A stretch of 64,000 nucleotides of DNA, from NCBI GenBank assembly GCA_947623825.1, contig CANQHQ010000002.1, positions 10,124-74,123 on the forward strand. Direction: 5' to 3'. The notes beneath the pieces are model-generated. The model ran no database searches and had not been told where the DNA came from. It saw nothing but the letters and a program-made list of their open reading frames with translations. Positions 276 to 28,129 of this stretch are shown piece by piece (position 1 is the first letter of the stretch; each line of letters opens with the position of its first letter). The position numbers were made by a program, and so were the translations under genes. The stretch is from an uncultured Bacilli bacterium. Its GTDB lineage: Bacteria; Bacillota_I; Bacilli_A; RF39; UBA660.

Positions 276-296
276 AGGTTGCTTCTTTTTTTTGTT
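262..296 (+). terminator. Rho-independent terminator after rny.
   Basis: Stem AGAAGCAA / TTGCTTCT with an 8-nt loop, followed by a T8 tract (286-293). Confidence 0.5.
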
Positions 297-324
297 GACT
301 TTTTGAGAGAAGTTCATATATACT
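295..324 (+). promoter_or_regulatory. Sigma-A type promoter of the first surface-protein gene: TTGACT, 18-nt spacer, TATACT.
   Basis: TTGACT at 295-300, an 18-nt spacer, then TATACT at 319-324. The same hexamers and spacing recur upstream of the paralog at 13205-13234. Confidence 0.5.
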
Positions 325-435: not shown

Positions 436-3400
436 ATGAACCGTTTTTTTTTAAAGATTCATAAGAATTTGAAATTTGTATCTCTTGGGTTACTAGGCTT
501 TTTTATGATTTGTATGGGGCTTTTGATAAACTCATATGCTTTAAGTGAACCAGTACCCAAGATTTCTTTTTCTTCAAAAACGTTAAGTTATGAAGAGAAG
601 GAACCAGGAAGTTGGCAGGTGGAAAAGAGTGCCGAATGGATTGGATTAGGAAAAGCCAGAATTACTTTTCAAGTCGATACGGTTTTGAAGAAAAAAAATC
701 CGAATACGGATGTTATTCTAGTTCTTGATGTTTCAGCGTCTATGTCAGGAAATAAATTGAATCGAGTGAAAGAAGATTCTATTGATTTAATAGATTCGTT
801 ACTCTCGGATCCTAACAATCATGCCGCATTGATTAGTTTTGATACGGATTCGAAATTGATATCGGATTTTACTAATGATAAAGATGGTTTAATAGAAAAA
901 GTTCGTCTTCTTTCTGAAGAAGGTAATACGAATTATTATCAACCTCTTGTAGATGCGGATGAAATCTTAAAAAAGTATCAAAAGAAAGAGGATACGGATT
1001 GTGTTCTCCTATTCTTGACTGATGGGTATCCTAATGTTGATGTTCCAAATCAAATCGGAGAATATTACTATTTGAAGACAGCTTACCCATGGTTAAATAT
1101 TCATGGAATTCAGTATGAAATGGGAAAAGAAATATTGGATCCAATTAAAGCAATTAGTGACAAACAATTCATTGCGGATATGATTACATTGAGAAATGCT
1201 TTAGTTGATGCCTCTGTTGTGCCGACTCTTTATGATAATTTTATATTAACGGATTGGATTAATAATGACTATTTTGATTTAAAAGATGTTTTGAATATTC
1301 AACCTTCTTTTGGAACAGTAAAATTAGAAGATGATAATGGAGTACCCAAAGTCACATGGGATTTGAGTGGTTTAGGATCAGGTCAGAAGGTTACTTTAAC
1401 GATAGATGTTGAATTAAAGGACAATTCTTATACGGGAAGTGAAATTAATCCAACGAATAAGAAGAGTAACGTCGTTTCTCAAATAGAAGAGGATGAAGAA
1501 GATACTACGGTAACCAACAGTCCAAGCTTAAAAACACATTATAAAGTAATTTATGATGGAAACGTACCAGATGGATGCCGTGTGGATAAGGTACCTGAAG
1601 TAAAAGAGTATGCTGTATATGAGACAGTTGGAAAACATGATGATGTTTTAACTTGTGAGGGATATCAATTCAAAGGTTGGAGAATTGCTACGGACGGGGT
1701 AGGAATTATTAATGATGATTATTTCAAAATGCCAGAGAAAGATGTGACGATTAAGGCAGAATGGGGAAAAATGGGTCTATCAAAAACTATGGATGGGACT
1801 GTTTATAGAGAAATTAGACCGATAATACAAAAAATAGGTGTTGATGGTTATGAAGGTGAGTTGTGGCAATATAAAGAATCTATTACAAAGATAGTAATCG
1901 AAGGAGAGCAAACAACGAAAGATGGTTCTACGGATGAACTTACCTGGGATATTTCGGAAGCCAAAGATGGTTCTGTTCGTGGATTATTGATACCGAATCC
2001 AGAAGACCCTTCTACTTATACTGCTTACATTCAAGGATTAGGTGGAAAAGTAATTGCAAATCCGAATAGTTCTTATTTGTTTGGCGGTGGAGATGGATAT
2101 TCTAATTCATTTTTAAAACTAACCACAATTGAGGGATTAGAATTATTAAATACTTCCCAAGTAACCAATATGAGTCATATGTTTTATAGTTGCGAACCCT
2201 TAATTAGTGTTGGAAATCTAAATGGCTGGGACACTAGTAAAGTAGTAAATATGGACTTTATGTTTCAAGGTTGTCATTCTTTAATAGATTTAAATTTTAT
2301 TAGTGAATGGAATACAAGTCAAGTAACGAATATGAGTCAGATGTTTGATGGTTGTCGTGCTTTGACAAGTTTGGAAGCTATTAGAGAATGGGATACGAGT
2401 CAGGTTACCGATATGAGTTATATGTTTGCTTACTGTTATGCTTTAACAAGTTTGGAAGCTATCAGTGAATGGGACACAAGTCAAGTAACTAATATGAGTA
2501 ATATGTTTTATAGCTGTGATTCTATTGAAAGTCTCGAAGGTATTAGCAAATGGGACACAAGACAAGTATTAGATATGAGTGGTATGTTTATTAACTGTAG
2601 TTTTGAAAGTCTTGAAAGTATTAGCGGATGGGACACAGCTCGAGTAACCAATATGAGTTATATGTTTTCTGGCTGTAATTTTATTGAGAGTCTTGAAAGT
2701 ATCAGCGGATGGGATACAAGTCAAGTAACCAATATGCAGAATATGTTTGAAGAATGTGGTTCTCTAACGGATTTGGAAGGTATCAAGGGATGGAATATGA
2801 GTCATGTAACGAATATGAGTTATATGTTTTCAAAGTGCTATTCCTTATTTGATGTAGATTTGAGTAACTGGAATACTCTCAGTGCGGTAAATATGAGTTA
2901 CTTGTTTTCTAATTGTAATTTTTTAAGAAACTTAAATTTGAGTGGATTGAAAACCGGTCAAGTAACCGATATGCGTTCTATGTTTGAAGAATGTAAAGCT
3001 TTGACTAGTTTGGATTTAAGTAGCTGGGATACAAGTAAAGTAGCCAATATGCGTTATATGTTTTCTGGTTGTAACACATTAACTAATTTAGATTTAAATG
3101 GATGGGACACTGGTCGAGTAACCAATATGGAAAGGATGTTTTATAATTGTATCGCCTTAATTAGTTTGGATTTGAGTGGTTGGGATATCAGTTCGGTATC
3201 AGATTGGGACTTTATGTTTTCTGGAACTACTGGTGAGTTAATCGTAAATAATTGGAAAGTTGGTTTGAGTTTAAATGAAGTTTTTTATAGTTTTAAGGGT
3301 ACCGAAATCAAGGGATTAGATACTTGGGATACAAGTCAGGTAACTGATATGAGCCAGATGTTTCTATTTTGTGATTCCTTGACTAGTATAGAGGGTTTGA

Positions 3401-6342
3401 GCGGATGGAACACAGGTCAAGTAACCAGTATGAGTCAGATGTTTTCTAGCTGTAAATCCTTAACCAGTGTGGGAGATTTAAGTCAATGGGATACGAGTCA
3501 TGTAACCAACATGTGGGAAATGTTTTCTTATTGTAAATCTATCAAATCTTTATCCTTAAGTGGTTGGAAAACAGATCAAGTAACCAGTATGGGTGATATG
3601 TTTGATAATTGTTCATCCTTAATCAGTTTAGATTTAAGCGGTTGGGACACAAGTCATGTAACCGATATGAGTAGTATGTTTATCAGTTGTGGAGCCTTGA
3701 CGAGTTTAGAAGGTATTAGTGATTGGGATACACGCCAGGTGAATAACATGCGCTCTGTTTTTTACGGTTGCCAATCCTTAGTGAAGTTAGATTTAAGTAG
3801 TTGGGATACTAGTGAAGTAACCGCCATGAATGGGATGTTTTCTGGATGTACGTCTTTAGAAAGTATCGGAAATATCGAGAGTTGGGATGTGGGTCGAGTA
3901 ACTGATATGAGTTCCATGTTTTCTGAGTGTCATTTTCTTACTACAACAATTAGTATTTTGAATCCGTTGGTAACTTCTTATTCTAAGATGTTTTATAATG
4001 CAGCGACAACCAATGGTGCCCGAATTATTGTTATTTATTCTAGCGGTTCTCTTGATTTAGTAGAGGAAATGATTGCAACTAAAAATAATGAAAACTCGAA
4101 TGTAATGAAAGGAAACCAACAAGAATATCAAAGTCATTCTATAACAATCCAGGGTAGAAATGACATTGTTTCTTCACAATCATCTGCATTCCCATATGTT
4201 GAAATTAAGTTAACGTCGAATCAGGATCATAAATTGATAACTTCCTTTGAGATGAATGGAACTCCAATGGAAGGAAATACTTTCAAGATGCCGAATAAAG
4301 ATGTGATTATTACCAATGTAACGGTTGTGGATGGATGGGAATCAGAACATAATCCGTATGGTGATAATTTGAATGAGGTCTATGAAGCAACGTTTGAAGG
4401 AGCCGGAAGTTTGACTATTATGTTACACTATTCTACAGATGAAGATTATATCTATCTATATGATCGTACTGGCAAACAATATGGGGAATATGAAGGATGG
4501 ATGAATGCGGGAGACATTATCATTATTCCGGGAGATTACGTAAAACTTAATTTTGTTACCAATGGAAGTTTCAATGAACTTTACGGTTTTCAGGCTATTA
4601 TTACTCCTAATGCACCTCATTCTGTTGAATTAAAATCTCCACCATATGATATTGGTTTGAGTAACGATTCGCCTGTATTAGGGGATACAGTGGAGTTAGT
4701 GTCACCTTCAGAAAATTATGTGGTGACATCGTTTAAAATGAATGGTACTTTGGTAGAGGGAGACTCCTTTGTGATGCCAGACGAGGATGTAGAGATTTCC
4801 GATATTATAGCAGTGAAAGGAAAAATTCTTGAGTCAGAGCATTATCCATATGGTGGTAATTTGAATGAAATCTATGAAGCAACATTGGATGGTGCGGGAA
4901 GTTTGACCGTTACTTTAGATTATCAACTCTATGGTTATGGCGATATTTATGGTGATAGTATTTATTTATATGATAAGTTAGATAACAGATATGATATAGA
5001 TGGAATTCATGACGGAACAAGTAACAGAAAAACGACAACGATCGTTATTCCAGGAGATTATGTAAAATTAAATTTTGTTACAGATGACGATTACAATAGT
5101 TATTATGGCTTTAGGGCAATTGTGATTTATAATGAATCTCATCCTATCACGGTAGAATCTCCACCGTATGATATTGTTGCTAATCAAACCTCGACTGGAT
5201 TAGGAGATACAGTGAAGTTGGTATCGCCATCTGGAAAATATGCCGTAACGTCATTTCGAATGAATGGTACTTTGGTAGAGGGAAATTCCTTTATAATGCC
5301 AGACGAACCGGTAACAATTTCAGATATTGAGGCGTTTGAAGGTGCAATTTTTGAATCGGATCATAATCCGTATAAAAATAATCTCAATGAATCATATGTG
5401 AAAAAATTTGCGGGAGCTTCTTCCTTAACAGTCACTCTAGAATACCAGACGGAAACGGACTTTGACTGGGTTTACTTATATGATAAATCCGGAGTGGAAC
5501 TTGGTAAGTATGGAGGTTCGACAAGAACAACGGAAACCATAGTGATTCCAGGAAACTATGTTAAGATTGTTTTTTATACTGATTCCGCCACGAATGCATA
5601 CTATGGATTTAAAGCGGTTATAACGGTTAATGAACCTCATTCTGTTACCCTAGAATCTTCGGTGTATGATATTGTTGCGAATAAGGAACAGACCTCATTA
5701 AAGGACACAGTAACACTGGTGTCGTCCTCTGGAAATTATAGAGTTGTATCGTTTAAAATGAATGGAAAAGAGATACAAGGAAATACGTTTGAAATGCCGG
5801 ATGAAGAAGCTAAAATTACAGATATTGTCGTAGAAAGTAGACATTCGATTGTGGTTACGGGAAATGAGGATATTGAAGCACATCCAGACTCTGCTTTTGT
5901 AGGAGATACTGTGACGTTATCATCTGTTTCTGGAAATAATCTAGTAACTTCGTTTGACATGAATGGAAGTAAGGTGGAAGGAAATTCCTTTGTGATGCCG
6001 GATGGATCCGTATCCATTTCTAACATTGTGGTAGTACAAGGCTTTGCTTTTGAATCTAGTCATAACTCCTATGACAATAATCTAAACGAAGAGTACGAAA
6101 AGACCTTTGCGGGGGCTACTTCTTTGACTGTTACCTTGGAGTATCAAACCGAAGGTATCAATTGGGATTATATTTGTTTATATGACAGAGTTGGAACAGA
6201 GCTTGGAAAGTACGGAGGACATATGAAGAAAACAGAAACGATAGTGATTCCTGGTGAATATGTGAAGATTTTATTCCATACGGATTCTTCTATCAATGAA
6301 TACTATGGCTTCAAAGCAACTATCGTTCCTAATTATGGATAA
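436..6342 (+). CDS. Giant surface protein of 1968 aa. It has an N-terminal signal-anchor TM, a vWA domain (DVILVLDVSASMSG, a DxSxS MIDAS motif), about 20 WDTSQVTNMSxMFxxC repeats (DUF285/BspA-like LRR) and four C-terminal CUB-like repeats.
   Basis: Long uninterrupted ORF with RBS GGAGG at 425-429. The MIDAS motif, the DUF285 repeat periodicity and the CUB-like repeat pattern (LNExYE..F.GA.SLT..L.YQTE...YLYD..G...G.YG.....TIVIPG.YVKL.F.TD....YGFKA) are read directly from the translation. Confidence 0.9.
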   Translation: MNRFFLKIHKNLKFVSLGLLGFFMICMGLLINSYALSEPVPKISFSSKTLSYEEKEPGSWQVEKSAEWIGLGKARITFQVDTVLKKKNPNTDVILVLDVSASMSGNKLNRVKEDSIDLIDSLLSDPNNHAALISFDTDSKLISDFTNDKDGLIEKVRLLSEEGNTNYYQPLVDADEILKKYQKKEDTDCVLLFLTDGYPNVDVPNQIGEYYYLKTAYPWLNIHGIQYEMGKEILDPIKAISDKQFIADMITLRNALVDASVVPTLYDNFILTDWINNDYFDLKDVLNIQPSFGTVKLEDDNGVPKVTWDLSGLGSGQKVTLTIDVELKDNSYTGSEINPTNKKSNVVSQIEEDEEDTTVTNSPSLKTHYKVIYDGNVPDGCRVDKVPEVKEYAVYETVGKHDDVLTCEGYQFKGWRIATDGVGIINDDYFKMPEKDVTIKAEWGKMGLSKTMDGTVYREIRPIIQKIGVDGYEGELWQYKESITKIVIEGEQTTKDGSTDELTWDISEAKDGSVRGLLIPNPEDPSTYTAYIQGLGGKVIANPNSSYLFGGGDGYSNSFLKLTTIEGLELLNTSQVTNMSHMFYSCEPLISVGNLNGWDTSKVVNMDFMFQGCHSLIDLNFISEWNTSQVTNMSQMFDGCRALTSLEAIREWDTSQVTDMSYMFAYCYALTSLEAISEWDTSQVTNMSNMFYSCDSIESLEGISKWDTRQVLDMSGMFINCSFESLESISGWDTARVTNMSYMFSGCNFIESLESISGWDTSQVTNMQNMFEECGSLTDLEGIKGWNMSHVTNMSYMFSKCYSLFDVDLSNWNTLSAVNMSYLFSNCNFLRNLNLSGLKTGQVTDMRSMFEECKALTSLDLSSWDTSKVANMRYMFSGCNTLTNLDLNGWDTGRVTNMERMFYNCIALISLDLSGWDISSVSDWDFMFSGTTGELIVNNWKVGLSLNEVFYSFKGTEIKGLDTWDTSQVTDMSQMFLFCDSLTSIEGLSGWNTGQVTSMSQMFSSCKSLTSVGDLSQWDTSHVTNMWEMFSYCKSIKSLSLSGWKTDQVTSMGDMFDNCSSLISLDLSGWDTSHVTDMSSMFISCGALTSLEGISDWDTRQVNNMRSVFYGCQSLVKLDLSSWDTSEVTAMNGMFSGCTSLESIGNIESWDVGRVTDMSSMFSECHFLTTTISILNPLVTSYSKMFYNAATTNGARIIVIYSSGSLDLVEEMIATKNNENSNVMKGNQQEYQSHSITIQGRNDIVSSQSSAFPYVEIKLTSNQDHKLITSFEMNGTPMEGNTFKMPNKDVIITNVTVVDGWESEHNPYGDNLNEVYEATFEGAGSLTIMLHYSTDEDYIYLYDRTGKQYGEYEGWMNAGDIIIIPGDYVKLNFVTNGSFNELYGFQAIITPNAPHSVELKSPPYDIGLSNDSPVLGDTVELVSPSENYVVTSFKMNGTLVEGDSFVMPDEDVEISDIIAVKGKILESEHYPYGGNLNEIYEATLDGAGSLTVTLDYQLYGYGDIYGDSIYLYDKLDNRYDIDGIHDGTSNRKTTTIVIPGDYVKLNFVTDDDYNSYYGFRAIVIYNESHPITVESPPYDIVANQTSTGLGDTVKLVSPSGKYAVTSFRMNGTLVEGNSFIMPDEPVTISDIEAFEGAIFESDHNPYKNNLNESYVKKFAGASSLTVTLEYQTETDFDWVYLYDKSGVELGKYGGSTRTTETIVIPGNYVKIVFYTDSATNAYYGFKAVITVNEPHSVTLESSVYDIVANKEQTSLKDTVTLVSSSGNYRVVSFKMNGKEIQGNTFEMPDEEAKITDIVVESRHSIVVTGNEDIEAHPDSAFVGDTVTLSSVSGNNLVTSFDMNGSKVEGNSFVMPDGSVSISNIVVVQGFAFESSHNSYDNNLNEEYEKTFAGATSLTVTLEYQTEGINWDYICLYDRVGTELGKYGGHMKKTETIVIPGEYVKILFHTDSSINEYYGFKATIVPNYG
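2158..4020 (+). repeat. Array of coding repeats, each about 72-75 bp (24-25 aa), inside gene 436-6342. They are DUF285/BspA-like leucine-rich repeats.
   Basis: The motif W[DN]TSQVT[ND]MSxMFxxCxSLxSLEGIS recurs about 20 times with similar codons. Confidence 0.7.
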
Positions 6343-6421: not shown

Positions 6422-7033
6422 ATGAAAAAAATTCCAAAGAAAAATTTAATTATTATCGCAAGTATTTGTTTTGTATGTTCTATTATATTGTTTATTTCAG
6501 CATCTTATTCTTATACGGATGGACAACTTCCTACACCGATTAGTGATGATGGAAATGTCACTTATGAATTATGTAAAAAAGATGGAACTTGTATGCCAGA
6601 AGGAAGAGTTTATGTTGGTAGAGAAGTAGGAAATATTCAAAATCATTTAGATTATACAGCCACTTATGATAGTGAAATTTCTTATGATTACGACTATTAT
6701 GTAAAAGGAAAAATTGTTTATAAAGATGGAAATGGAAATGTCGTTCATGAGGAAGAAGAAATGCTAAATGATAGTCAAAAAGTTACTGGAACTGGTACTT
6801 CTTTTCAAATTCAAAGCGAGGTTACGGTTACTTATTCTGATTATTATGAAAAGGCCAATAATTCTCTTTCCAGTCATGGAGGAGTTACGGCAGACTTAGA
6901 AATTTCCTTGGTTTTGAAAAAACTTGATATGGAAGAAGTGGTGGCGACCGTTCGTTATCCTTTGAAAGAGGATATGTTTACCGTTACGAAAGAAGTTGTT
7001 TCGAGAAGAGTTGGACAGGAAGAAAAGAAATAG
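6422..7033 (+). CDS. Membrane-anchored hypothetical protein of 203 aa, with an N-terminal TM and an extracellular domain.
   Basis: RBS GGAGGTGGAAG then ATG. Hydrophobic N-terminus (IIIASICFVCSIILFISA). No recognisable motif. Confidence 0.65.
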   Translation: MKKIPKKNLIIIASICFVCSIILFISASYSYTDGQLPTPISDDGNVTYELCKKDGTCMPEGRVYVGREVGNIQNHLDYTATYDSEISYDYDYYVKGKIVYKDGNGNVVHEEEEMLNDSQKVTGTGTSFQIQSEVTVTYSDYYEKANNSLSSHGGVTADLEISLVLKKLDMEEVVATVRYPLKEDMFTVTKEVVSRRVGQEEKK

Positions 7034-7066
7034 AAGAAGGAGGAGGAACTCCTTCTTTTCTTTGAA
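7034..7066 (+). terminator. Rho-independent terminator.
   Basis: Stem GAAGAAGGAG / CTCCTTCTTC followed by a T-rich run. Confidence 0.5.
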
Positions 7067-7092
7067 ATCCTACTTGTAACTTTTTCTTTATT

Positions 7093-8037
7093 TTGATATA
7101 TTTATATAGAATAGAAAGGATGATTTCTATGTTTAGTGAAGATCAAGTCTTAGAAAAAGTTTCCAATAAAAAACAAAAACAAATTTTAATCTTTATTATC
7201 GCAATCTGCATCTTTCTTATTGTTGTTTTATTGGTATCTATGTATTTTTATATGGATAATCAACCTTTGATTAGTTTTCCTACTTATCAGTTATCCACAG
7301 AAGAGTGGACAACGGATAATGTGATGATTGAAATTACGAATGATAGTAAGAATATTCAATCTTATTCTTTTGATGGAGGAAAAACTTGGCAAACGAATTC
7401 TACTTATGAAGTAACAGAAAATGGAGAATATGAAATTCAAGTTATGGATATAAAGAATAAGTTAAGTAAGAAGAATCTTGTTGTTGTATCGAATATTGAC
7501 CGTACTCCTCCTACGATGGTGTTTGAAAGTTCTACGACGATACAAATGGGTTCTAATTTTACTCCTTCTTATGGCGTACAAGTATCTGATAAAGAATCGG
7601 GCTTAAGTAATAATTATACAGCAGTTCCTAGTTCGATTGATACCAGTGTCGAAGGAGAATATAAAATTACTTATTCGGCATTCGATCGTGCGGGAAACTT
7701 TGTAGAAAAAGAAAGAACCATTATCGTAAAAGATATTAAAGGTAGAACGTATTATCGTTATCGTGAAGGAACGATTGAGTCTTACGAGTGTGAACCGTAT
7801 CTTTGTCGTTGTGTTTCTTCGAATCTTGCTTCTTCTACAGGAACTTGTCCTACTGGATATACTTTAAATGATGAAGGTCAATGTTGTAACACTTGTTATA
7901 AGACTTGTACGAAAACCAATTGGGGAGAATGGAGTAAGTGGGATCAAAAAAAGGTGACTGCTACTCCTACTCGTGAAGTAGAAAGTATTCTTGTTGAGGA
8001 TGGACAAGAATTAGAAGGGGTGACGGATCAACGATGA
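7093..8037 (+). CDS. Membrane-anchored protein with an Ig-like (DUF5011-like) domain and a C-terminal Cys-rich module that ends in a WGEWSKW tryptophan motif. The start may instead be at 7120 or 7129.
   Basis: TM helix ILIFIIAICIFLIVVLLVSMYF. Segment NIDRTPPTMVFESST..YGVQVSD..SG..NYTA.PSSIDTSVEGEYKITYSAFDRAGN resembles bacterial Ig-like/DUF5011 domains. There are 11 Cys in the last 90 aa. It is paralogous to the next gene. Confidence 0.7.
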   Translation: MIYLYRIERMISMFSEDQVLEKVSNKKQKQILIFIIAICIFLIVVLLVSMYFYMDNQPLISFPTYQLSTEEWTTDNVMIEITNDSKNIQSYSFDGGKTWQTNSTYEVTENGEYEIQVMDIKNKLSKKNLVVVSNIDRTPPTMVFESSTTIQMGSNFTPSYGVQVSDKESGLSNNYTAVPSSIDTSVEGEYKITYSAFDRAGNFVEKERTIIVKDIKGRTYYRYREGTIESYECEPYLCRCVSSNLASSTGTCPTGYTLNDEGQCCNTCYKTCTKTNWGEWSKWDQKKVTATPTREVESILVEDGQELEGVTDQR

Positions 8038-8933
8038 AACAGAAAGTAACGTATCAGGGCCCTATTGATCAATATGGTCGCCCTCTAGAGAATAGGGGAA
8101 ACAAGAATGGCTTGGGAGAGAATCAGAGATTAGGAACCATGATCTTCACTGCTTTGGGTATCGCTCTTATTCTTATTGTAATTGGTTTATTTGTTTATAA
8201 TTATATTTCTCAGAATCGTTTGGAGATTCCAACGGCTTCTCTTTCTACGACAGAATGGACCAATGAGTCAGTGACAGTCACTGTAGATCAAAGTCGTGGA
8301 AAAGGAAACGAATATTCTTTTGATGATGGAAAAACTTGGCAAACGCAAAATACGTTTGTGGTAGATGAAAATCAAGAATTGGTGTTACGAGTACGTAATT
8401 CCAAAGGAAAAGTAAGTAAGCCAGCGACGGTTATTGTTTCAAATATTGATAAAGAGGATCCAGAACTTTATTTTATTTCTCCTTATTATATACAGGTAGG
8501 TTCTACCTTTGATGGAAAATTGAATGTTTCTGCAGATGATTTAGGTTCTGGTATTGAAACCTATACGATTGATACTTCTCGTTTGGATATGAATGTCCCA
8601 GGTACGTATGAAGTTTCTTATCTTCTTACGGATTTGGTTGGTAATACAACAAAGAAGGTCCGTACGGTTGTCGTTCATGAGGGTGAAAAGAATTATTTTT
8701 ATCGTTCTCGTTCTGTAGAATTTGGAGAATCCGATTGTCCTTATGAATGTGAATGTGTTCCTCCTACAGATGGGCTTTGTCCCGCAGGAAAACACGTTTC
8801 AGAAGATAAGACGCAATGTTGTGAAACTTGTACGGAAAAGTGTGAACAATTTACATATGGAAATTGGTCAGAATGGAGTAGTGTACGAATGATTCCATCT
8901 AGTCAATTAGAAGTAGAAATGCGTATGGAATAG
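8034..8933 (+). CDS. Paralog of the preceding gene: TM anchor, Ig-like (DUF5011-like) domain and a Cys-rich C-terminal module with a GNWSEWS motif.
   Basis: ATG overlaps the upstream stop (ATGA). Shares FDDGKTWQT, a VSNID..PP motif and the CP..C.C...C......CC.TC..C cysteine pattern with 7093-8037. Confidence 0.7.
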   Translation: MKQKVTYQGPIDQYGRPLENRGNKNGLGENQRLGTMIFTALGIALILIVIGLFVYNYISQNRLEIPTASLSTTEWTNESVTVTVDQSRGKGNEYSFDDGKTWQTQNTFVVDENQELVLRVRNSKGKVSKPATVIVSNIDKEDPELYFISPYYIQVGSTFDGKLNVSADDLGSGIETYTIDTSRLDMNVPGTYEVSYLLTDLVGNTTKKVRTVVVHEGEKNYFYRSRSVEFGESDCPYECECVPPTDGLCPAGKHVSEDKTQCCETCTEKCEQFTYGNWSEWSSVRMIPSSQLEVEMRME

Positions 8934-8975
8934 GGGTAATCCCTTTTTCTTTTTTTTGGTAGAAAGGAGGATTCT

Positions 8976-11327
8976 ATGGACGAGTACCGGAAAGTAATGC
9001 GAATTCGTTATCATCAAAAACTTTTTGATGTTTATGTCGACGATAGGCATCGTAAGACTTTTTTAGAAGTTCGAGACGATGAAAATTTCTGTCGAAGTCT
9101 TTATCCCTATTTGGATGATTATCTTTCATTGTACGTGAAAATGAATTTTCCTTCTCATATTCTTTATTCCAAAAAATTTCGCTTTCCTAAAAAAGTCTTT
9201 TTTCGAGAAGAAAAGAAACCTACACTACGAAAAGTGGCCGGAACTTTGGGAATGGTTTTATCTTTTGAAATTTTAGGAGCGATTCTCTGTCTCAATCCTA
9301 AATTTCAAAAAAGTATGATGTCTTTTGGAACGGTTTCTTCGTTGGATGAGGAAATAGATAGGGAAATTTCTTATGATACATATGATGGTTCTATTTTTCA
9401 TATCGATGAAATCGCTTCTCTTTCTGAATTTGGAATGGAACCGGTTTCTTTTTATGAAGTACGAAAGACATTAGAAGAAAATATCAACCTTTCTCCTCGT
9501 TTTAAGGAGGAAGCCCGTCTTTTCCTTGATCGATTAGAAGAACGATTCCCACAAGTGGATCTTCGTATTTTGAATCAAAATTTAAAAAAGATGTACGATG
9601 AAATCAATCCATCTTATCCATTGAAAAGAGGAGATGGATTGATGACTGGTTCGTTTTCTCCTTCCTTGGGAAAAGTTTCTTTAGAAGAAAATTATTCTGA
9701 AATGACTGCTTTTCATGAATTGTGTCACGCCTTAAATTCTTTTATTGGAGAAATTTCTTCTTCTAGTTCTTCGGATACGTATCAGATTCATTACTTTTTC
9801 CGAAAAGATTCCTATGGAGAAAGTTTTGTGGAAAGTATGAATACGATTTTAGCGGATTATCTTTTAGCGGAAGATTGGAAGAATTATTTTACTCCTACGG
9901 AAAGAACGTATTCTTCTTATCGTAGTATTTCTTATGAAACGTATCAATTATTGAAACTATTAAAAGGGTATTCTCTTACGGATTTTGTGAATCGAAATGT
10001 GTCTTACTTCGAAGAACAATTGAAAAAAGTTCATTTAGAAGAATATATCGATTATTTAGATACTTTTTATCGTGCGGAATATACCGATATGGAAGTAGTG
10101 GATACGAAGGATTCTTTGAAAGAGGAGTTACAGCATTCTCTTTTAAAGCAAAGAATTCTTGAAGAATGTGGTGATACCGTTACGCCAACGATGGTTTATC
10201 GAATGGCAGGAGCGATTCATCTATGTGAAGACCAAAAACTTGATATTTGTAATGAAATATTAGAGGAGGATGGGCAGGTTTGGTTATTCCGAACGCCTTC
10301 TTCGCCTTTTTATGATGAGGATTCCGATTCTTATGCTTATATTTATCAGGGGGAAGAAAAGATTTTTCAAGGAAAACAGAATGATATTTATATTTACAAA
10401 AGTGTAGAAGAGAATCATACGGTTTTTCATATGGCTTATTATGAGAATGAACAAAGAAAATATTATGATTTGGTAGAAAAAAAAGAGATTGATTTTCCTT
10501 CTTCGATTCTCTATCCGATTCCGTTAAATTCCGTTTGTGGATGGTTCCATATCGATGATTCTCATTTGGATTTTAGTATGGATGTGTTAAAGGAACCTTC
10601 TTTTATCAGTTATTTGAATTCTGAAACGAGAGAGGTACGGTTATATAATCAGGATTCTTTATTGTCACGAGAAAAAGTTGATTCTTTGTATTGGTATAAA
10701 AATTTTGATTCCAAGATGCCGTATTCTTTGACTTCCTATGATTCTTTGAATGATCTTTATTGTGATTATTTTACGAAGAAACCCATTGATTATAAAAAAC
10801 TAGGACCAGTTCGTTCTTTTTGGAATACGATTTATCAGTATACAAATTTTACTTTTGAAGAAGAGGGTACTTTTTCTTCTAGTGACTCGTCTAAAACTTT
10901 AATTCAAAAAGAAAAAAACAGTTACGATTTACGAGTAGATATTCAATTATTACAGGATGTGTCTTTTCTTCATTTTTTGGATCAATGTGCCCCTATTTCG
11001 ATTAATTTTTACGATGGAAAAGAAGTCAAATACTGTTTTGATATCAATCAGATTTTCTTGTATGATGCGTCTTTACAAGGACCATCTCAAATTCGATTTG
11101 GATACTACGATTATGAATCTACTTCTGATGTTGATTTTCTAACTGGAAAACCAGTCGATGTCGATTGCCTTGGTTCCATTAAATATTTTAATGAAATCGT
11201 CGATGCAGGTAGCGAAGATTTAGAGTTTGATTTATCTTCTCTTTCGCAATATCCATTATTGGAATATTACCATTCTTCGGTAGAGGATTTTTCTCTTTCT
11301 ATTCCTAAGATCAAACAAAAAGATTAG
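8976..11327 (+). CDS. Membrane-anchored 783-aa protein with an HExxH motif (FHELCH). It is a putative zinc metallopeptidase-like protein of an unrecognised family.
   Basis: RBS AGGAGG before ATG. Single TM at about aa 88-106 (VAGTLGMVLSFEILGAILCL). HELCH is encoded at 9714-9728. Confidence 0.7.
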   Translation: MDEYRKVMRIRYHQKLFDVYVDDRHRKTFLEVRDDENFCRSLYPYLDDYLSLYVKMNFPSHILYSKKFRFPKKVFFREEKKPTLRKVAGTLGMVLSFEILGAILCLNPKFQKSMMSFGTVSSLDEEIDREISYDTYDGSIFHIDEIASLSEFGMEPVSFYEVRKTLEENINLSPRFKEEARLFLDRLEERFPQVDLRILNQNLKKMYDEINPSYPLKRGDGLMTGSFSPSLGKVSLEENYSEMTAFHELCHALNSFIGEISSSSSSDTYQIHYFFRKDSYGESFVESMNTILADYLLAEDWKNYFTPTERTYSSYRSISYETYQLLKLLKGYSLTDFVNRNVSYFEEQLKKVHLEEYIDYLDTFYRAEYTDMEVVDTKDSLKEELQHSLLKQRILEECGDTVTPTMVYRMAGAIHLCEDQKLDICNEILEEDGQVWLFRTPSSPFYDEDSDSYAYIYQGEEKIFQGKQNDIYIYKSVEENHTVFHMAYYENEQRKYYDLVEKKEIDFPSSILYPIPLNSVCGWFHIDDSHLDFSMDVLKEPSFISYLNSETREVRLYNQDSLLSREKVDSLYWYKNFDSKMPYSLTSYDSLNDLYCDYFTKKPIDYKKLGPVRSFWNTIYQYTNFTFEEEGTFSSSDSSKTLIQKEKNSYDLRVDIQLLQDVSFLHFLDQCAPISINFYDGKEVKYCFDINQIFLYDASLQGPSQIRFGYYDYESTSDVDFLTGKPVDVDCLGSIKYFNEIVDAGSEDLEFDLSSLSQYPLLEYYHSSVEDFSLSIPKIKQKD

Positions 11328-11368
11328 ATGCTTTGGAAAACATCTAATCTTTCTTTATTGATCGATTT

Positions 11369-13051
11369 TTATTTTTTTATATCGATGATGACAGGAAGAA
11401 TAATTGGTCTTCGACCGGTGACCTCTTCCGTAAAGTTGATTAGTTCACTGATTAATTTACTTTTTAGTTCATTGATTTCGTCTTTTGTATTCGTTAGGAA
11501 ATCGTTGATGATTTCGGTAGCGGTTGTTTCAATTTGTTTAATTAATTCTTCGTTTTCGTTTACCAAAATAAATCCTCTCGTTGTAATATTTGGTTTAATG
11601 AGTAATTTTCTTTTTGAAAAATCAATATTTGCGATGACAACAAGGATTCCATCGTTAGACATCATCTTTCGATCACGAATGACAACGCCACCTACTTCTC
11701 CAATTCGATTTCCATCGACGTAGACATCTTCTCCTGATACTTTTTCTCTCGACTTGGTAATGACATGATCTTTTAATGTTAAGACATCTCCATTTTCGAG
11801 AACAAAAGTATTTTCTTTCGGAATTCCACAATCAATGGCGATATTGGCATGTTTTTTCAACATCCGGTAGTCTCCATGGAACGGCATCACATATTTTGGC
11901 ATAATCAGACGAATCATGAGTTTTAGTTCTTCTTCATTCGCATGCCCTGAAGTATGCAAATCCCCATCAAATGTACTATTTGTGAATACTTGAATTCCTT
12001 TTAAATATAATTTGTTGATTGTTTTGGCAATCGATAAGGCGTTTCCTGGAATAGGGGAAGAAGAGAAAATCACAATATCATCTGGTCTAAGTGATACTTG
12101 TTTGTGTGTTCCATCTGCAATTCTAGATAAAGCAGCCAAAGGTTCTCCTTGGGAACCGGTACATAAAACAGTAACTTCTCCTGGTTTCAATGTATTGGCT
12201 ACTTCTGGAGTGATGATTAATTCTTTATGATTGATATATCCTCCATTAATTGAAATTTGGATGTTGTTTTCCATACTTCTTCCGAAAATACAAATTTTAC
12301 GATTGTGTTTGTAACAAGTTTCAAAAATGTGTTTTAGGCGATAAATATTAGAGGCGAATGTGGCAATAATGATTCGACGATTTGGATACTGATTAAAAAT
12401 ATCCATCATTGTATCATCGACTTTGGATTCGCTAATCGACATTCCTTCATTGAGGGCATTGGTCGAGTCACTAATTAATAAATCTACTCCTCTTTTTCCT
12501 AACTCAGCCATTTTATGTAAATCAGCCATCGGTCCAATCGGAGTCAAATCAAATTTAAAGTCTCCGGTTGTGACAACACTTCCATTTGGTGTTTTTAGAT
12601 ATACACCATGAGAGTCTGGAATCGAGTGAGTGGTTCTAAAAAATTCAATTTCAAAATTCTTTAATTTAATTTTTGTTTTATCATCATACGCATAAAGATG
12701 GTCATAACGAATATTTCGGTCTTCTAATTTTAAAGCAATTAATTCCTTTGCTTGATTTGGTGCGTAAATCGCAGGGATTTCCACTGTTTGAAGTAAAAAA
12801 GGAATACTTCCGATATGATCTTCGTGACCGTGCGTAATGATTAAACATTTTATTTTGGATTGATTTTCTTTTAAAAAGGTAAAATCCGGTAGAACATAGT
12901 CAATTCCTAATAGTTCTCCTTCTGGGAAACTAATTCCCGCATCGATAATAACAATTTCGTCTCCATGCATTAAACAATACATGTTTTTTCCAACTTCGCC
13001 TAAACCACCTAAAACAATAATCTTTGTTTCAATTGGTTTATTAAACTTCAT
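11369..13051 (-). CDS. rnj: Ribonuclease J (metallo-beta-lactamase/beta-CASP RNase).
   Basis: Motif IITHGHEDHIGSIPFLL. 560 aa, which fits RNase J length. Conserved N-terminus MKFNKP..TKIIVLGGLGEVGKNMY. Confidence 0.9.
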   Translation of the reverse strand: MKFNKPIETKIIVLGGLGEVGKNMYCLMHGDEIVIIDAGISFPEGELLGIDYVLPDFTFLKENQSKIKCLIITHGHEDHIGSIPFLLQTVEIPAIYAPNQAKELIALKLEDRNIRYDHLYAYDDKTKIKLKNFEIEFFRTTHSIPDSHGVYLKTPNGSVVTTGDFKFDLTPIGPMADLHKMAELGKRGVDLLISDSTNALNEGMSISESKVDDTMMDIFNQYPNRRIIIATFASNIYRLKHIFETCYKHNRKICIFGRSMENNIQISINGGYINHKELIITPEVANTLKPGEVTVLCTGSQGEPLAALSRIADGTHKQVSLRPDDIVIFSSSPIPGNALSIAKTINKLYLKGIQVFTNSTFDGDLHTSGHANEEELKLMIRLIMPKYVMPFHGDYRMLKKHANIAIDCGIPKENTFVLENGDVLTLKDHVITKSREKVSGEDVYVDGNRIGEVGGVVIRDRKMMSNDGILVVIANIDFSKRKLLIKPNITTRGFILVNENEELIKQIETTATEIINDFLTNTKDEINELKSKLISELINFTEEVTGRRPIILPVIIDIKK

Positions 13052-13204: not shown

Positions 13205-13234
13205 TTGACTTTTCAAGGCGGGGGGGGGTATACT
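13205..13234 (+). promoter_or_regulatory. Promoter of the paralogous surface-protein gene: TTGACT, an 18-nt spacer containing a G9 homopolymer, then TATACT.
   Basis: TTGACT at 13205-13210, spacer tttcaaggcGGGGGGGGG, TATACT at 13229-13234. Same hexamers and spacing as the promoter at 295-324, but with the poly-G inserted. Confidence 0.55.
13220..13228 (+). repeat. Homopolymeric G9 tract inside the promoter spacer.
   Basis: Nine consecutive G directly visible. This is extremely unusual in a sequence of about 33% GC. Confidence 0.9.
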
Positions 13235-13354
13235 AAGAATAGGAGAAAACTAGGAACCGTAAAGGATGGAAGATTTGTATATTTTCTCCTGAGCGTGTTC
13301 CTTTTTTGTAGAAAAAAATGCTCCTTGTTTTTATAATGGAAGGAAGAATGTTGA

Positions 13355-16297
13355 ATGAAAAAAACGTTTCTTTGGATTCATAAAAGAATTGGAGTTCTTA
13401 CGATTGGTTTATTGGCTGTTTTCATGATTGGAATAGGGCTTTTGATGAATTCTTATGCCTTAAATGAACCTGTACCCAAGATTATTTTTTCATCCCAAAC
13501 GTTAAGTTATGAAGAGAATGATTCAGGAAGTTGGAAAGTTGACAAGAGTGCCGAATGGATTGGCGAAGGAAAAGCGAGAATTACCTTTCAAGTTGATACG
13601 GTTTTAAGAACAGGAAATCCAAATACAGATGTCATTTTAGTTCTTGATATTTCAGGGTCTATGTCGGGAAATAAATTAGAGCGCGTGAAACAGGATTCTA
13701 TCAATTTATTAGATTCCTTATTATCGAATCCTAATAATCAAGCAGCATTGATTACATTCGATACAGGATCAGTATTGGTATCGGATTTTACTAATGATAA
13801 GGACAGTTTAATAGGAGAGATAAATCATTTAGAAGCTATAGGAACTACTAATTATTATCAACCGCTTGTCCATGTAGATGAGATTTTAAAAGACTATTCC
13901 AAGAAAGAAGATACAGAGTGTGTTGTTTTATTCTTAACGGATGGATATCCGAATGAGGATATTCCGAATCAGATAGGAGAATACAAATATTTAAAAAGTG
14001 AATATTCATGGTTAAATATTCATGGAGTACAGTACGAAATGGGAGAAGAGGTTCTAGATCCTATCAAAAAAGTTAGTGATAAGCAATTTATTGCGGATAT
14101 GACTACGTTGAACAATGTCTTGTTTGATGCTTCTGTTCTACCTATTCCTTATGACAAGTTTATATTAACGGATTGGATTCATAATGAATATTTTGATTTA
14201 AAGGAGATTTCGAATATCCAACCTTCTTTTGGGGAAGTAAAGTTGGAAGATGATAACGGAGTACCCAAAGTGACATGGGATTTAAGCGGTTTAGTGGCAG
14301 GACAAGGTGCCACGTTAACGATAGATATTGATTTAAAAGGAGATTCTTACACAGGAAGTGAAATTAATCCAACCAACAAGAGTAGTGAAGTGGTTTCTCA
14401 AATAGATGGGGATAAAGAAGATGTTACAACAAAGGAAAGTCCTAGTTTAAAAACACATTATAAAGTGATTTACGATGGAAATGCCCCAAGTGGATGTAGT
14501 GTAGGTGAGGTACCTGAAGCAAAAGATTATGCTGTATACGAAACAGTCGGAAAAAGTGATGCAGTTCCTATTTGTGAAGGTTATCAATTTAAAGGATGGG
14601 AAATTGTAACAGAAGAAGTGAAACAACTGAATGGTGACTATTTTCAAATGCCTGAGAAAGATGTAACATTACGAGCAGAATGGGGAAGAATGGGATTATC
14701 GAAGTCTGTGGAAGGAGAAGTTTATGTCCAAAAAGATCCAATTCTTCAAAAAATAGATTCTGATAGTTATAATAAAGAACTTTGGAAATATAAAAATTCT
14801 ATTACGAAGATAGTCTTTGAAGGGGAACAGACGTCAAAAACAGGTTCTACAGAGGAACTTACTTGGGATATTTCAGAAGCAAAAGATTGGTCGGTACGAG
14901 GATTATTGGTACCGAATTCAGATGATTCTTCGACTTATACTGCCTATATTCAAGGCTTGGAAGGAAGAGTGATTGCGAACTCAGATAGTTCTTACTTATT
15001 TGGTAGCAAAAGTTCTTCTACGTCATTTACAAAGTTAACGGCAATTGAGGGACTAAAGTTATTGGATACAAGTCAAGTAACCGATATGGCTTTTATGTTT
15101 TGCCATTGTGAATCCTTAACCAGTGTTGGAAATATAAGTGGCTGGGACGTGAGACAAGTAACCGATATGGCTTATATGTTTAGTTATTGTTATGCCTTAA
15201 CCAGTTTAGATTTAAGTGGCTGGAACACAAGTCGAGTAAAAGGTATGAGTTATATGTTTATGTATTGTAAAGTCTTAACCAGTGTTGGAGGTATAAGTGG
15301 CTGGGACACACGTCAAGTAACTGCTATGTATTTTTTGTTTGATGGTTGTAGCGCCTTAAAAAGTTTAGATTTAAGTGGTTGGAATACAAGTCTAGTAACC
15401 AATATGGGTGGTATGTTTTCCAGTTGTTCATCCTTAACTAGTGTAGGAGATTTAAGTGGTTGGGAAACCGGCCAAGTAACCAATATGAGTTTTATGTTTG
15501 ATGATTGTGAAGTCTTAACCAGTGTAGGAGATATAAGTGCCTGGGACACACGTCGAGTAACCAATATGAGTTCTATGTTTACTCGGTGTTACGTTTTAAC
15601 TACAACGATTAGTATTTTAAGTAATTCGGTGGCTAGTTATGATTTGATGTTCTATTCTGCTGCTACTAAAAATAATGCCAAGATTACCGTTAATTATTCT
15701 AGTGAATCAGAAGCATTAGTGAATCAAATGATTGCAACAAAGTCTGATGGTTGTAATGTGGTAAAAGCAAGTAGTCCGTATGTGGCACATTCCGTAACGA
15801 TTCAAGGTAGAAATGACATTATTGCGACTCCATCAAATGGAATGATGTTTACCAGAATTACGTTAACTCCAATCAATGAGGATTATATGGTTACTTCATT
15901 TGAAATGAATGGAACGAAAATAGAAGGTAATACCTTTGTTATGCCGAATGGGAATGCCATGATTACGAATGTAACTACTGGAGTGGGAACAGTGTTTGAG
16001 TCTAACCATAATCCATATGATAATAACCTAGATGATGAGTATGAACATACCTTTGAAGGCGCTACTTCTTTGACCGTTACGTTGGAGTATCAAACGGAAG
16101 AACCGGATGAATCGATGTATGATTGGATTGCCTTGTATGATAGAACTGGAAAAGAGTATGGTAAATATGGAAGAGAAACAAAAACAACAGAAACCATCGT
16201 CATCTCAGGAGATTACGTTAAACTTTTATTTCATACGGATGAGTTTGTAGATGGTTACTATGGATTCAAAGCCACTGTGGTCCCAAATTATGAATAA
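13355..16297 (+). CDS. Paralogous surface protein of 980 aa: signal anchor, vWA (DVILVLDISGSMSG), about 7 DUF285-type repeats and one C-terminal CUB-like domain.
   Basis: N-terminal 560 aa is about 75% identical to gene 436-6342. Same repeat motif WDTRQVTxMxxMF. C-terminus YGFKATVVPNYE matches the C-terminus of the first paralog. Confidence 0.9.
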   Translation: MKKTFLWIHKRIGVLTIGLLAVFMIGIGLLMNSYALNEPVPKIIFSSQTLSYEENDSGSWKVDKSAEWIGEGKARITFQVDTVLRTGNPNTDVILVLDISGSMSGNKLERVKQDSINLLDSLLSNPNNQAALITFDTGSVLVSDFTNDKDSLIGEINHLEAIGTTNYYQPLVHVDEILKDYSKKEDTECVVLFLTDGYPNEDIPNQIGEYKYLKSEYSWLNIHGVQYEMGEEVLDPIKKVSDKQFIADMTTLNNVLFDASVLPIPYDKFILTDWIHNEYFDLKEISNIQPSFGEVKLEDDNGVPKVTWDLSGLVAGQGATLTIDIDLKGDSYTGSEINPTNKSSEVVSQIDGDKEDVTTKESPSLKTHYKVIYDGNAPSGCSVGEVPEAKDYAVYETVGKSDAVPICEGYQFKGWEIVTEEVKQLNGDYFQMPEKDVTLRAEWGRMGLSKSVEGEVYVQKDPILQKIDSDSYNKELWKYKNSITKIVFEGEQTSKTGSTEELTWDISEAKDWSVRGLLVPNSDDSSTYTAYIQGLEGRVIANSDSSYLFGSKSSSTSFTKLTAIEGLKLLDTSQVTDMAFMFCHCESLTSVGNISGWDVRQVTDMAYMFSYCYALTSLDLSGWNTSRVKGMSYMFMYCKVLTSVGGISGWDTRQVTAMYFLFDGCSALKSLDLSGWNTSLVTNMGGMFSSCSSLTSVGDLSGWETGQVTNMSFMFDDCEVLTSVGDISAWDTRRVTNMSSMFTRCYVLTTTISILSNSVASYDLMFYSAATKNNAKITVNYSSESEALVNQMIATKSDGCNVVKASSPYVAHSVTIQGRNDIIATPSNGMMFTRITLTPINEDYMVTSFEMNGTKIEGNTFVMPNGNAMITNVTTGVGTVFESNHNPYDNNLDDEYEHTFEGATSLTVTLEYQTEEPDESMYDWIALYDRTGKEYGKYGRETKTTETIVISGDYVKLLFHTDEFVDGYYGFKATVVPNYE

Positions 16298-19704: not shown

Positions 19705-19719
19705 AGGAAGTGTATTGTT

Positions 19720-24383: not shown

Positions 24384-24488
24384 GACATGTCACTAAAAAA
24401 TTTAGGAAGAAAAAACAGATTTCTAGGCGAAGAAATTAGTATACTTTTTCTTATCTGAATATGATAAAGCAGATAGGAGGAATAAAAA

Positions 24489-24707
24489 ATGTTTAGAAAT
24501 GGTTGTTACGATCGTCAGAATGAAATGAATAACACCTTCAATATGAATGGAGATAACATGTCTGTCGATGTCGATGTTTCTATGAACAATAATGAAATGG
24601 CAGGTGCTGCTCCTATGCCAATGGGAACAGTTCAAGGACCTGTTATGGAACCTATGAGAGAAAGACAGGTACATCGTACGATTATGCATGAAGTACAACA
24701 AGTGTGA
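24489..24707 (+). CDS. Small Met/Asn-rich hypothetical protein of 72 aa.
   Basis: Strong RBS AGGAGG 8 nt upstream. Composition-biased sequence with no recognisable motif. Confidence 0.45.
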   Translation: MFRNGCYDRQNEMNNTFNMNGDNMSVDVDVSMNNNEMAGAAPMPMGTVQGPVMEPMRERQVHRTIMHEVQQV

Positions 24708-24919
24708 TAATTTATGATAGACTAAAATTTGAAGATGGATAAGTACAGACTAAAGATATTTTGGTAATCAATGTTAATTTGAAAGGATAATCTATGTGAG
24801 TAATAAATATGAATTTTTTATAGCCGGTAGAGTTAGGAATAAAGAAAATATTTTCAAATGAAACAGAATTAGAAGAGTTTTTAAAAGAGTATAATAAATA
24901 GAATAATAAAAGTTAGAAA

Positions 24920-25684: not shown

Positions 25685-25691
25685 AAAAATT

Positions 25692-25742
25692 ATCATCCTA
25701 TAAATTGAAATTAAAATTTTAATATAGGATGATTTTTATTTT
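25692..25742 (+). terminator. Rho-independent terminator after the Fic gene.
   Basis: Perfect 11-bp inverted repeat ATCATCCTATA / TATAGGATGAT with a 20-nt loop, followed by TTTTATTTT. Confidence 0.55.
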
Positions 25743-25800
25743 ATTAAAATTGTAGTATTTCTTATGTTACTTCTTAATATCAATCTAGAAATTAGGATGA

Positions 25801-25872
25801 ATTTCGTAAGTACGAAATAAGAATGGTGTATACACGTGCCCTTATTATATAAGAAGAACGTGGATACACCAT
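25801..25872. repeat. Two adjacent palindromic elements: the perfect palindrome ATTTCGTAagTACGAAAT, and the imperfect inverted repeat ATGGTGTATACACG ... CGTGGATACACCAT.
   Basis: Directly visible between the Fic gene and the recombinase gene. Candidate recombinase or regulator binding sites. Confidence 0.5.
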
Positions 25873-27868: not shown

Positions 27869-28129
27869 CAAAAAAGGGCAGTCACATGTTTGTCCAATTC
27901 GTACACGTGTTATTAATCATCATGTATACCGTCATACATATCGTCCATCGTATTCTTGTTGTGAAGAGAATGTATGTAGTCAAATTCAATGTGGTTCTTG
28001 TTGTAATTTTAGATAAAAGTCGCAAGACTTTTTTCTTTTGCAGTTCTTTGTCAACTTTTGTCTAATTTCTGTAAATTACTTGTAATCTTGAAAGAATGAT
28101 TTTATTATTAAAATAGGGAAGGTGATACA

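Follow-up and report, generated by a model that had tools for sequence, protein, structure and literature searches.

CUB-like repeat units in two paralogous vWA-PARCEL proteins of an uncultured Bacilli bacterium

A 64,000-nucleotide stretch of contig CANQHQ010000002.1 (assembly GCA_947623825.1, uncultured Bacilli bacterium), referred to here as the window, encodes two large paralogous proteins, presumably exported and displayed at the cell surface, whose C-terminal parts are built from repeated units resembling the CUB domain. The five units, C1 to C4 in paralog 1 and C5 in paralog 2, belong to a divergent, sub-threshold and cysteine-poor CUB branch, probably of the eight-stranded Ca2+-binding type, and that they are homologous CUB-fold domains is very probable. 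With moderate confidence, the reading preferred here is that these CUB homologs act as Ca2+-dependent ligand-binding modules of an adhesin that also carries a von Willebrand factor A (vWA) domain and an array of PARCEL leucine-rich repeats (LRRs). An adhesin function can reasonably be inferred from this architecture, which recurs in metagenome-assembled genomes (MAGs) of other gut Bacilli, with several paralogs per genome.

Fold and descent of the CUB-like units

A hidden Markov model (HMM) of the five units, searched against the six-frame translation of the whole 64-kb window, recovered five copies in all, with per-domain E-values of 1e-45 to 1e-54, and no further copy. These lie where an earlier note on the same DNA had recognized a CUB-like motif (H.PY..N.N..YE.TF.GA.SLTVTL.YQTE...YLYD...TIVIPG.YVKL.F.TD...YGFKA). 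That note had described four tandem units of about 110 aa in the larger protein and one more in its paralog; the copy numbers hold, but the units are not in tandem, being interleaved with another conserved domain, here called B, and the CUB-like core is shorter than had been stated (~92-102 aa, about 95 aa). The array reads B1-C1-B2-C2-B3-C3-B4-B5-C4 in paralog 1 and B6-C5 in paralog 2, with a period of 164-174 aa. Pairwise protein identity between units is 49-70%, C4 and C5 being the closest pair (70%). The DNA copies are 60-81% identical and their start-to-start spacings are 492, 522 and 699 nt, so the units are regarded as old duplications rather than a chance resemblance.

The five units were aligned with 20 close homologs, and AlphaFold2 (AF2) was run on this alignment. 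The resulting model of C4 reaches a mean predicted local distance difference test score (pLDDT) of 93.7 and contains eight beta strands according to DSSP. This is the strand number of the Ca2+-binding CUB subset, in which two four-stranded sheets are formed without beta1 and beta2 (PMC8051872, PMC6372009). In a Foldseek search of the PDB with this model, ranks 1-24 were all CUB domains (E from 3.8e-5), including those of C1s, C1r, MAp19, MASP-1/2/3, TSG-6, neuropilin-1/2, and cubilin, with template modeling (TM) scores of 0.62-0.83 and root-mean-square deviations of 2.4-4.0 Å. The two-domain model of B5-C4 (pLDDT 92.5) reproduced the CUB result, and over both models the TM scores were mostly 0.7-0.84, the lowest being 0.62. 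The structural check proposed in the earlier note, a jelly-roll in AlphaFold models searched with Foldseek, therefore yielded a CUB-type beta-sandwich superposing on solved CUB domains; neither an unrelated fold nor another family emerged.

Comparisons of sequence led to the same family. In Pfam scans of the single units, CUB (PF00431) was the sole recurrent match, found in three of the five with a best E of 0.0015. A profile of the five window units alone gave only noise against the PDB (best E 0.29, a xylanase and LSm3), so more family members were needed. A close-family profile containing no classical CUB then had cubilin CUB5-8 as its top PDB sequence (E 7.9e-6), and its hhalign comparison with six solved CUB segments reached 97.1% probability (E 6.3e-11, 80 columns); a broader family profile reached cubilin at 5e-30 and MASP-2 at 1.5e-15. 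Pairwise, BLASTP aligned C4 with each of the five domains of a bacterial protein, P0028, at 35-44% identity (E 1e-13), and this protein, which combines Big_3, BspA-type LRRs and Big_2, scores 129.5 bits on Pfam CUB. More generally, PF00431 is matched at E<=0.01 by 34 of 57 family members (best 1.8e-19), with scores of 65-130 bits for one-step relatives. Because CUB is the one family reached by profile, hhalign and BLASTP searches alike, the units are considered true CUB homologs of a divergent branch, related to bona fide CUBs in sequence at the superfamily level, and the original family call stands.

Candidate calcium site and proposed binding

Three positions of the units, a Tyr and two Asp, align column for column with the solved cubilin and MASP-2 CUBs in both HMMER and hhalign. 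In C4 they correspond to Y1879, the Tyr of a conserved ESxHxxY motif that also contains H1876, to D1911, the Asp of W/Y-D-Y/W-I, and to D1950, the Asp of T-D-x-S (with S1952). The Ca2+-binding CUB subset is characterized by a conserved Tyr, the acidic residues Glu, Asp and Asp, and a Ser or Asn following the last Asp. On the basis of the literature and of the C1s and MASP-2 numbering, the matching residues of cubilin and MASP-2 are taken here to be Ca2+ ligands. Across 502 domain instances from 168 family proteins, these are among the best conserved positions (Tyr in 486 of 494, the first Asp in 481 of 496, the second in 388 of 502, with Asn in 73). In 403 of 481 instances a Glu is located 3-9 residues ahead of the first Asp, 4 being the commonest distance. 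In the window the candidate is the Glu of QTE (E1906 in C4), located in a loop shorter than that of metazoan CUBs; since the loop length differs and the alignment shifts by 2-4 residues, its equivalence is taken as inferred. Most of the calcium-site signature for which the earlier note suggested looking is thus present, the alignment being exact for Tyr, Asp and Asp and open to doubt for Glu. By this reading, the complete Tyr/Glu/Asp/Asp set would be present in C3, C4 and C5. An extra, family-specific ESxHPYxNN stretch contains a nearly invariant His.

Ca2+-binding CUBs of animals bind lysines of their ligands through acidic residues of the site (PMC6372009, PMC8051872, both citing Gaboriaud et al. 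2011). By analogy, the CUB-like units would bind Ca2+ and capture ligands through Lys or Arg. At one end of the sandwich, Tyr, Glu, Asp and Asp would coordinate the ion, which would organize the loops. The acidic ligands would then capture a Lys or Arg of a partner; this could be a protein of the host or of the matrix, or a further protein of a bacterial surface. Units C3, C4 and C5 would carry the full site, C1 and C2, being degenerate, may serve mainly as a stalk, and the PARCEL array together with the vWA domain and its metal ion-dependent adhesion site (MIDAS) could add further binding surfaces, resulting in a multivalent adhesin. The promoter of paralog 2 contains a poly-G tract that probably acts as an expression switch. 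That the units themselves are Ca2+-dependent ligand-binding adhesin modules is a tentative proposal, which we place a little short of an even chance, and the analogy favors protein over glycan binding. A more specific version, in which phase-variable vWA-PARCEL proteins of uncultured gut Bacilli carry at their free end a lysine-grabbing acidic Ca2+ site that binds host proteins (collagen-like stalks or lysine-presenting mucosal ligands), is considered unlikely. If true, bacteria would possess a counterpart, or a mimic, of the way in which complement, cubilin and PCPE CUBs recognize their ligands, a mode regarded as metazoan, and the ESxHPYxNN loop would tune the specificity of a disulfide-free CUB clade that bears a Ca2+-site signature and is broadly distributed in bacteria. 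The preferred reading yields a concrete hypothesis of Ca2+-dependent, lysine-directed binding with named residues.

Several observations weigh against the preferred reading. No unit reaches the gathering score of PF00431 (C4 scores 17.5 against 21.4 bits), and CUB is not listed in the whole-protein Pfam scan. The four canonical CUB cysteines, which form two disulfides, are absent, each unit having none or one (only C1914 in C4); across the family, at least four Cys occur in only 20 of the 502 domain instances. The Glu is ambiguous, as HMMER and hhalign place the Glu of the solved domains 2-4 residues from E1906. Two units have an incomplete site: in C1 the Glu is replaced by Asp and the last Asp by Asn, and in C2 the Glu is lost. 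Family-wide the motif is complete in 52 of 85 terminal copies (61%) and in 19 of 36 internal copies (53%), figures that give no statistical support to the idea that terminal copies keep it better. Finally, without a wall-anchor motif, retention of the proteins on the cell is left unexplained if the signal peptide is cleaved.

Some of these points would suit a different role. The B-CUB array could be mainly a rigid stalk or spacer that sets length, leaving binding to the vWA and PARCEL modules, with the acidic residues holding Ca2+ only for rigidity. In the two-domain model (pTM, the predicted TM score, 0.79) the last strand of B5 continues into the first strand of the C4 sandwich, copy number varies between the paralogs (four CUB-like units and 22 PARCEL repeats in one, one and six in the other), the sites of C1 and C2 are degenerate, and Ca2+-stiffened beta-sandwich repeats are known in RTX adhesins (PMC7493085). 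However, the best conserved positions are those aligning with the Tyr and Asp of Ca2+-binding CUBs, together with the ESxHPYxNN loop, and not those of the core alone, and in 85 of the 168 proteins retrieved a unit stops no more than six residues short of the C-terminus, which would be odd for a pure spacer; we therefore regard this role as somewhat unlikely, though it deserves consideration. The units could instead mediate Ca2+-dependent association with themselves or with a bacterial partner, in the manner of CUB1 of C1r, C1s and MASP, and so serve retention or aggregation rather than adhesion to a host. The top structural matches are indeed CUB1 domains of C1s, C1r and MASP, taken from entries for dimers or complexes. 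The protein lacks a wall anchor, and possible partners, transmembrane-anchored Ig-like proteins (7093-8037 and 8034-8933), are encoded just downstream of the giant gene, after which no terminator-like site is found. Yet such a partner interaction is a proposal only, and paralog 2 has no neighbors of this kind, being followed by FtsY, so that self- or partner association appears quite improbable.

Glycan binding, which the earlier note had also suggested, has the least support of these three alternatives. Beta-sandwich jelly-rolls are common among carbohydrate-binding modules (CBMs), the modular xylanase Xyn30D appears at Foldseek rank 50 with the B5-C4 model, and the gut habitat of the relatives is rich in glycans, all of which would be compatible with lectin-like domains that only resemble CUB. 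Against this, Pfam scans of the units gave no CBM, lectin or galactose-binding-like family, the top 40 Foldseek matches contained no CBM, lectin or glycan-binding structure, and the homology to CUB is seen directly in sequence, making a carbohydrate-binding identity very improbable. Still harder to credit, to the point of being almost negligible, is a convergent resemblance of an unrelated beta-sandwich, such as a GOLD-like domain or a subtilase C-terminal jelly-roll. Domains of both kinds occur in the Foldseek lists, but only below the CUBs and with TM scores of 0.5-0.6, whereas those of the CUBs are clearly higher; moreover, sequence-only evidence reaches CUB without any structure, and the one-step relatives pass Pfam CUB.

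Architecture, relatives and known systems

Both paralogs have the same domain order: signal peptide or anchor, vWA, Ig-like, InlB-B-repeat-like, PARCEL LRR, and (B-CUB)n (Table 1). The fusion to vWA and LRR modules proposed in the earlier note was confirmed, with PF13519/PF00092 and PF03382/TIGR02167 matched in both proteins. A protein identical to paralog 1 is present in NCBI as an entry without a name, and the N-terminal 570 aa of paralog 2 are 72% identical to those of paralog 1, including a conserved NSYA/L(S/N)EP directly after the hydrophobic segment. As read from the translation, the vWA domain of paralog 1 contains a DxSxS MIDAS-type motif (LDVSASMSG). Domain scans also gave a weak match to a tip-pilin-type Ig domain in the surface protein, and Flg_new_2 scores 27.1 bits in paralog 2, above its cutoff of 23.6. 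The PARCEL array of ~26-aa repeats is confirmed, with PF03382 scores of 500.9 bits in paralog 1 and 159.1 bits in paralog 2 and 22 and 6 TIGR02167 repeats, respectively; in paralog 1 it shows a Cys every 26-27 aa and a single interruption near aa 905-979. The C-terminal ~740 aa of paralog 1 were assigned nothing by Pfam or NCBIfam in the whole-protein scan.

Table 1. Features of the two paralogous loci, in positions of the 64-kb window
Feature	Position	Strand	Basis or remark
C1, CUB-like, degenerate Ca site (QTE to STD; TD to TN)	4333..4614	+	unit HMM
C2, CUB-like, longer L5-type loop, Glu lost (QLY), both Asp retained	4813..5136	+	unit HMM
C3, CUB-like, full Tyr/Glu/Asp/Asp set	5338..5634	+	unit HMM
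C4, terminal CUB-like unit of paralog 1	6034..6339	+	unit HMM, AF2, Foldseek, Pfam CUB 17.5 bits (E 0.0055)
C5, terminal CUB-like unit of paralog 2, full Tyr/Glu/Asp/Asp set	15983..16294	+	unit HMM
C4 candidate Ca-site residues Y1879, E1906, D1911, D1950, S1952	6070-6072, 6151-6153, 6166-6168, 6283-6285, 6289-6291	+	alignments
B1, ~65-aa all-beta spacer domain	4132..4326	+	B profile, E 4e-33
B2	4615..4812	+	B profile
B3	5137..5334	+	B profile
B4	5635..5832	+	B profile
B5	5839..6033	+	B profile
B6 (paralog 2)	15785..15979	+	B profile
Paralog 1 coding sequence, 1968-aa surface protein	436..6342	+	intact open reading frame
Signal peptide or N-terminal anchor, paralog 1 aa 11-37	466..546	+	Kyte-Doolittle scan; the protein's only hydrophobic segment
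vWA domain, paralog 1 aa 92-205	709..1050	+	PF13519 6.6e-14, PF00092 1.4e-9
InlB B-repeat / Listeria-Bacteroides-repeat-like domain, paralog 1 aa 369-444	1540..1767	+	Flg_new_2 20.3 bits, sub-threshold
PARCEL/DUF285 (BspA-like LRR) array, paralog 1 ~aa 575-1190	2158..4005	+	PF03382 5.7e-153; TIGR02167 2.1e-161
Paralog 2 coding sequence, 980 aa	13355..16297	+	architecture as paralog 1; 6 PARCEL repeats, one B, one CUB-like unit
Promoter-like TTGACT-18-TATACT upstream of paralog 1, no homopolymer	295..324	+	sequence reading
Promoter-like TTGACT-18-TATACT upstream of paralog 2, G9 tract 13220-13228	13205..13234	+	sequence reading

Regarding attachment, neither paralog has an LPxTG-like motif or a C-terminal transmembrane or hydrophobic segment, the marks of a sortase anchor. 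Lipoprotein anchoring was rejected, a lipobox being unlikely because the sole candidate Cys (aa 26) is not kept in paralog 2. A C-terminal sorting domain, such as that of the type IX secretion system, was likewise discarded: no such family appeared in NCBIfam and Pfam scans at E<=1, and the unit is not exclusively C-terminal, since of the four in paralog 1 three (C1 to C3) lie in the interior of the protein.

The B domain precedes every CUB-like unit in the window and its relatives, with one extra lone copy, and has the consensus xHSITxxG..DI......GDTVTL.S.SGNY.VTSF.MNG..VEGN.F.MP...V.I..I. Searches for its family returned little. Against Pfam, first with 6 and then with 29 members, there was no significant match, only a weak hint of Flg_new_2 (3 of 29 at E 0.03); its profile against the PDB gave a sub-significant segment of a gingipain C-terminal domain (E 0.012); hhalign against the Flg_new region of the surface protein itself reached 36% probability over the F.MP..DV.I tail only; and in the Foldseek search with B5-C4 the CUB matches dominate.

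The family is widespread. Searched with its profile, clusters formed at 50% identity yielded 2,832 matching representatives at E<=1e-3, of which 972 reach E<=1e-10. Among the best 150 of the 2,832 matches many have N-terminal signal-like sequences, with carriers of Big_3, Big_2, CARDB, FN3, BACON and BspA LRR domains included. Two one-step relatives with bacterial-type surface domains clearly pass Pfam CUB, P0028 and P0031 (CARDB, BACON). Given these cluster matches and Pfam-positive relatives with bacterial surface domains, CUB is not rare in bacteria, contrary to what the earlier note had supposed; the units belong to a widespread, already recognized bacterial CUB lineage, and the call, while correct, is not very surprising. 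Far from being a rarity of metazoans, CUB-type recognition modules that include most of the Ca2+-site signature are common among the surface proteins of bacteria. A bacterial subtilisin-CUB fusion (Bdellovibrio NP_967057.1) was described in 2008, when the role of prokaryotic CUBs was "not clear" (PMC2605481). This is not a new kind of system, bacterial CUBs being already in Pfam, and the function proposed here is reached by inference; no paper dealing with CUB domains in PARCEL or BspA proteins turned up in the literature searches.

In the close subfamily, B is followed by CUB, which typically ends in ...TPNY[D/E/G] at the extreme C-terminus, and the partners are PARCEL arrays and/or vWA. Among species-representative genomes, its members occur in MAGs labeled uncultured gut 'Bacilli' or 'Bacillales', which derive from rabbit, goat and other samples and often contain several paralogs each; precomputed public annotation gives these members no domain. 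A more distant relative (38% identity, locus L021) is carried by a cultured organism, the Clostridiaceae bacterium Marseille-Q4145. The C-terminal ~740 aa here and their counterparts in uncultured gut Bacilli can now be labeled as B-CUB modules. Contigs from MAGs labeled 'uncultured Muribaculaceae' (Bacteroidota) also carry the family (L001, L004-L006, L008, L017, L019, L022, L023); as it is otherwise seen in Bacilli, this could reflect mis-binning or horizontal transfer. Eukaryotic-looking ankyrin-repeat giants are present among the best 150 family matches as well, and a CUB of the ESxHPYxNN type is present in several copies in giant, cysteine-rich proteins 4,800-6,400 aa long (P0034, P0157, P0119, P0128, P0138, P0139, P0159). 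P0034, the sole giant scanned, has dozens of ankyrin repeats plus LRRs and scores 65 bits on Pfam CUB; giants of this type are probably eukaryotic or intracellular contexts of this CUB branch.

By structure and function, the closest known domains are the metazoan Ca2+-binding CUBs, such as CUB1-2 of C1s, C1r and MASP, cubilin CUB5-8, neuropilin a1/a2, PCPE-1 and TSG-6. The window units share with them the eight-stranded sandwich of two four-stranded sheets lacking beta1 and beta2 (PMC6372009, PMC8051872), with TM scores of 0.62-0.84. Their Tyr and both Asp stand in register with those of the metazoan domains and have a Glu close by, and the SD/TD-x-S motif is common to both groups, as is a GF motif toward the C-terminus. 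Unlike them, the window units lack disulfides (0-1 Cys), have a shorter L5-type loop, are only 15-23% identical in sequence, add the ESxH(N)PYxNN motif with its almost invariant His, and come from a bacterial host; they are also spaced by the 65-aa B domain, whereas metazoan CUBs are separated by EGF domains or directly in tandem. By descent, the closest are the Pfam-positive bacterial CUBs, for instance P0028, with five CUBs beside Big_3, BspA LRR_5 and Big_2, and P0031, with CARDB, FN3 and BACON. These have in common with the window units the motif set (E)SxHxY.NN ... GA ... TE..[WY]D.I.[IL]YD ... [ST]D.S..YYGF and likewise form part of large surface-type proteins with many domains, BspA-type LRRs among them in some cases, while the window subfamily is more divergent, sub-threshold, preceded by B, and fused to vWA and PARCEL. 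The bulk of both window proteins, the PARCEL array, resembles the PARCEL/DUF285 (BspA-like) proteins of Mollicutes, Firmicutes and protists. PARCEL has been described as a variable, horizontally spread surface repeat (PMC2996958). That paper mentions no CUB or vWA fusions, in contrast to the array in the window, which is flanked by an N-terminal vWA and a C-terminal B-CUB.

Promoter tracts, neighboring genes and the rest of the window

Homopolymer tracts act as promoter switches in other bacteria, as in the poly-A spacers of Mycoplasma vlp-type genes or the poly-G spacer of Neisseria porA. The G9 tract upstream of paralog 2 resembles them in lying within the -35/-10 spacer, which it closes by abutting the -10 hexamer, and it is the only G/C homopolymer of at least 8 in the 64-kb window. 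In 23 related loci six such homopolymers were found (L007:49, L008:4475, L009:4300, L011:3460, L013:3296, L013:7448), G8-G11 in length and all upstream of family genes, the one at the end of L013 preceding a further paralog. A -10-like hexamer is abutted, or nearly so, by four of the six, one having AGGGG before TATACT, and in L007 the tract comes immediately after a TTGACT -35-like hexamer. The tracts are not equally long in all paralogs and genomes, so that L009 and L011 have spacers of 18 versus 20 nt, as is classic for slipped-strand ON/OFF switches. Judged from these sequences, the tract is a candidate switch of this kind and paralog 2 is probably phase-variable, which lends indirect support to a variable surface role. 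The likeness to known switches has limits: each locus is represented here by one sequence, and paralog 1 lacks the tract.

The 5' leaders of the two genes (300-436 and 13235-13355) share motifs downstream of the -10 hexamer, namely TAGGAACCGTAAA, and CCTTGTTTTT before the ribosome-binding site, and a conserved leader or regulatory element is therefore suggested for both paralogs.

Directly downstream of the giant gene, which, as noted above, no terminator-like site follows, the region 6422-11723 encodes a 203-aa protein and two of ~300 aa, each with one N-terminal transmembrane segment, followed by a 783-aa protein without a Pfam match. The two ~300-aa products, from the Ig-like open reading frames already mentioned, are N-terminally anchored and match Bact_surface_Ig-like (PF16403); the downstream gene products may be co-expressed surface partners.

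Elsewhere in the window, a full-length OLE (ornate large extremophilic) RNA (Rfam RF01071, 370 bits) lies at 59466-60055 on the + strand, consistent with a Firmicutes chromosome. The stretch 24000-28000 is low in GC (0.24-0.28 versus ~0.34 elsewhere), and the region 17854-21474 contains two neighboring genes for HerA/DUF87-type ATPases (616 and 584 aa) and, after them, one for a DUF5684 protein.

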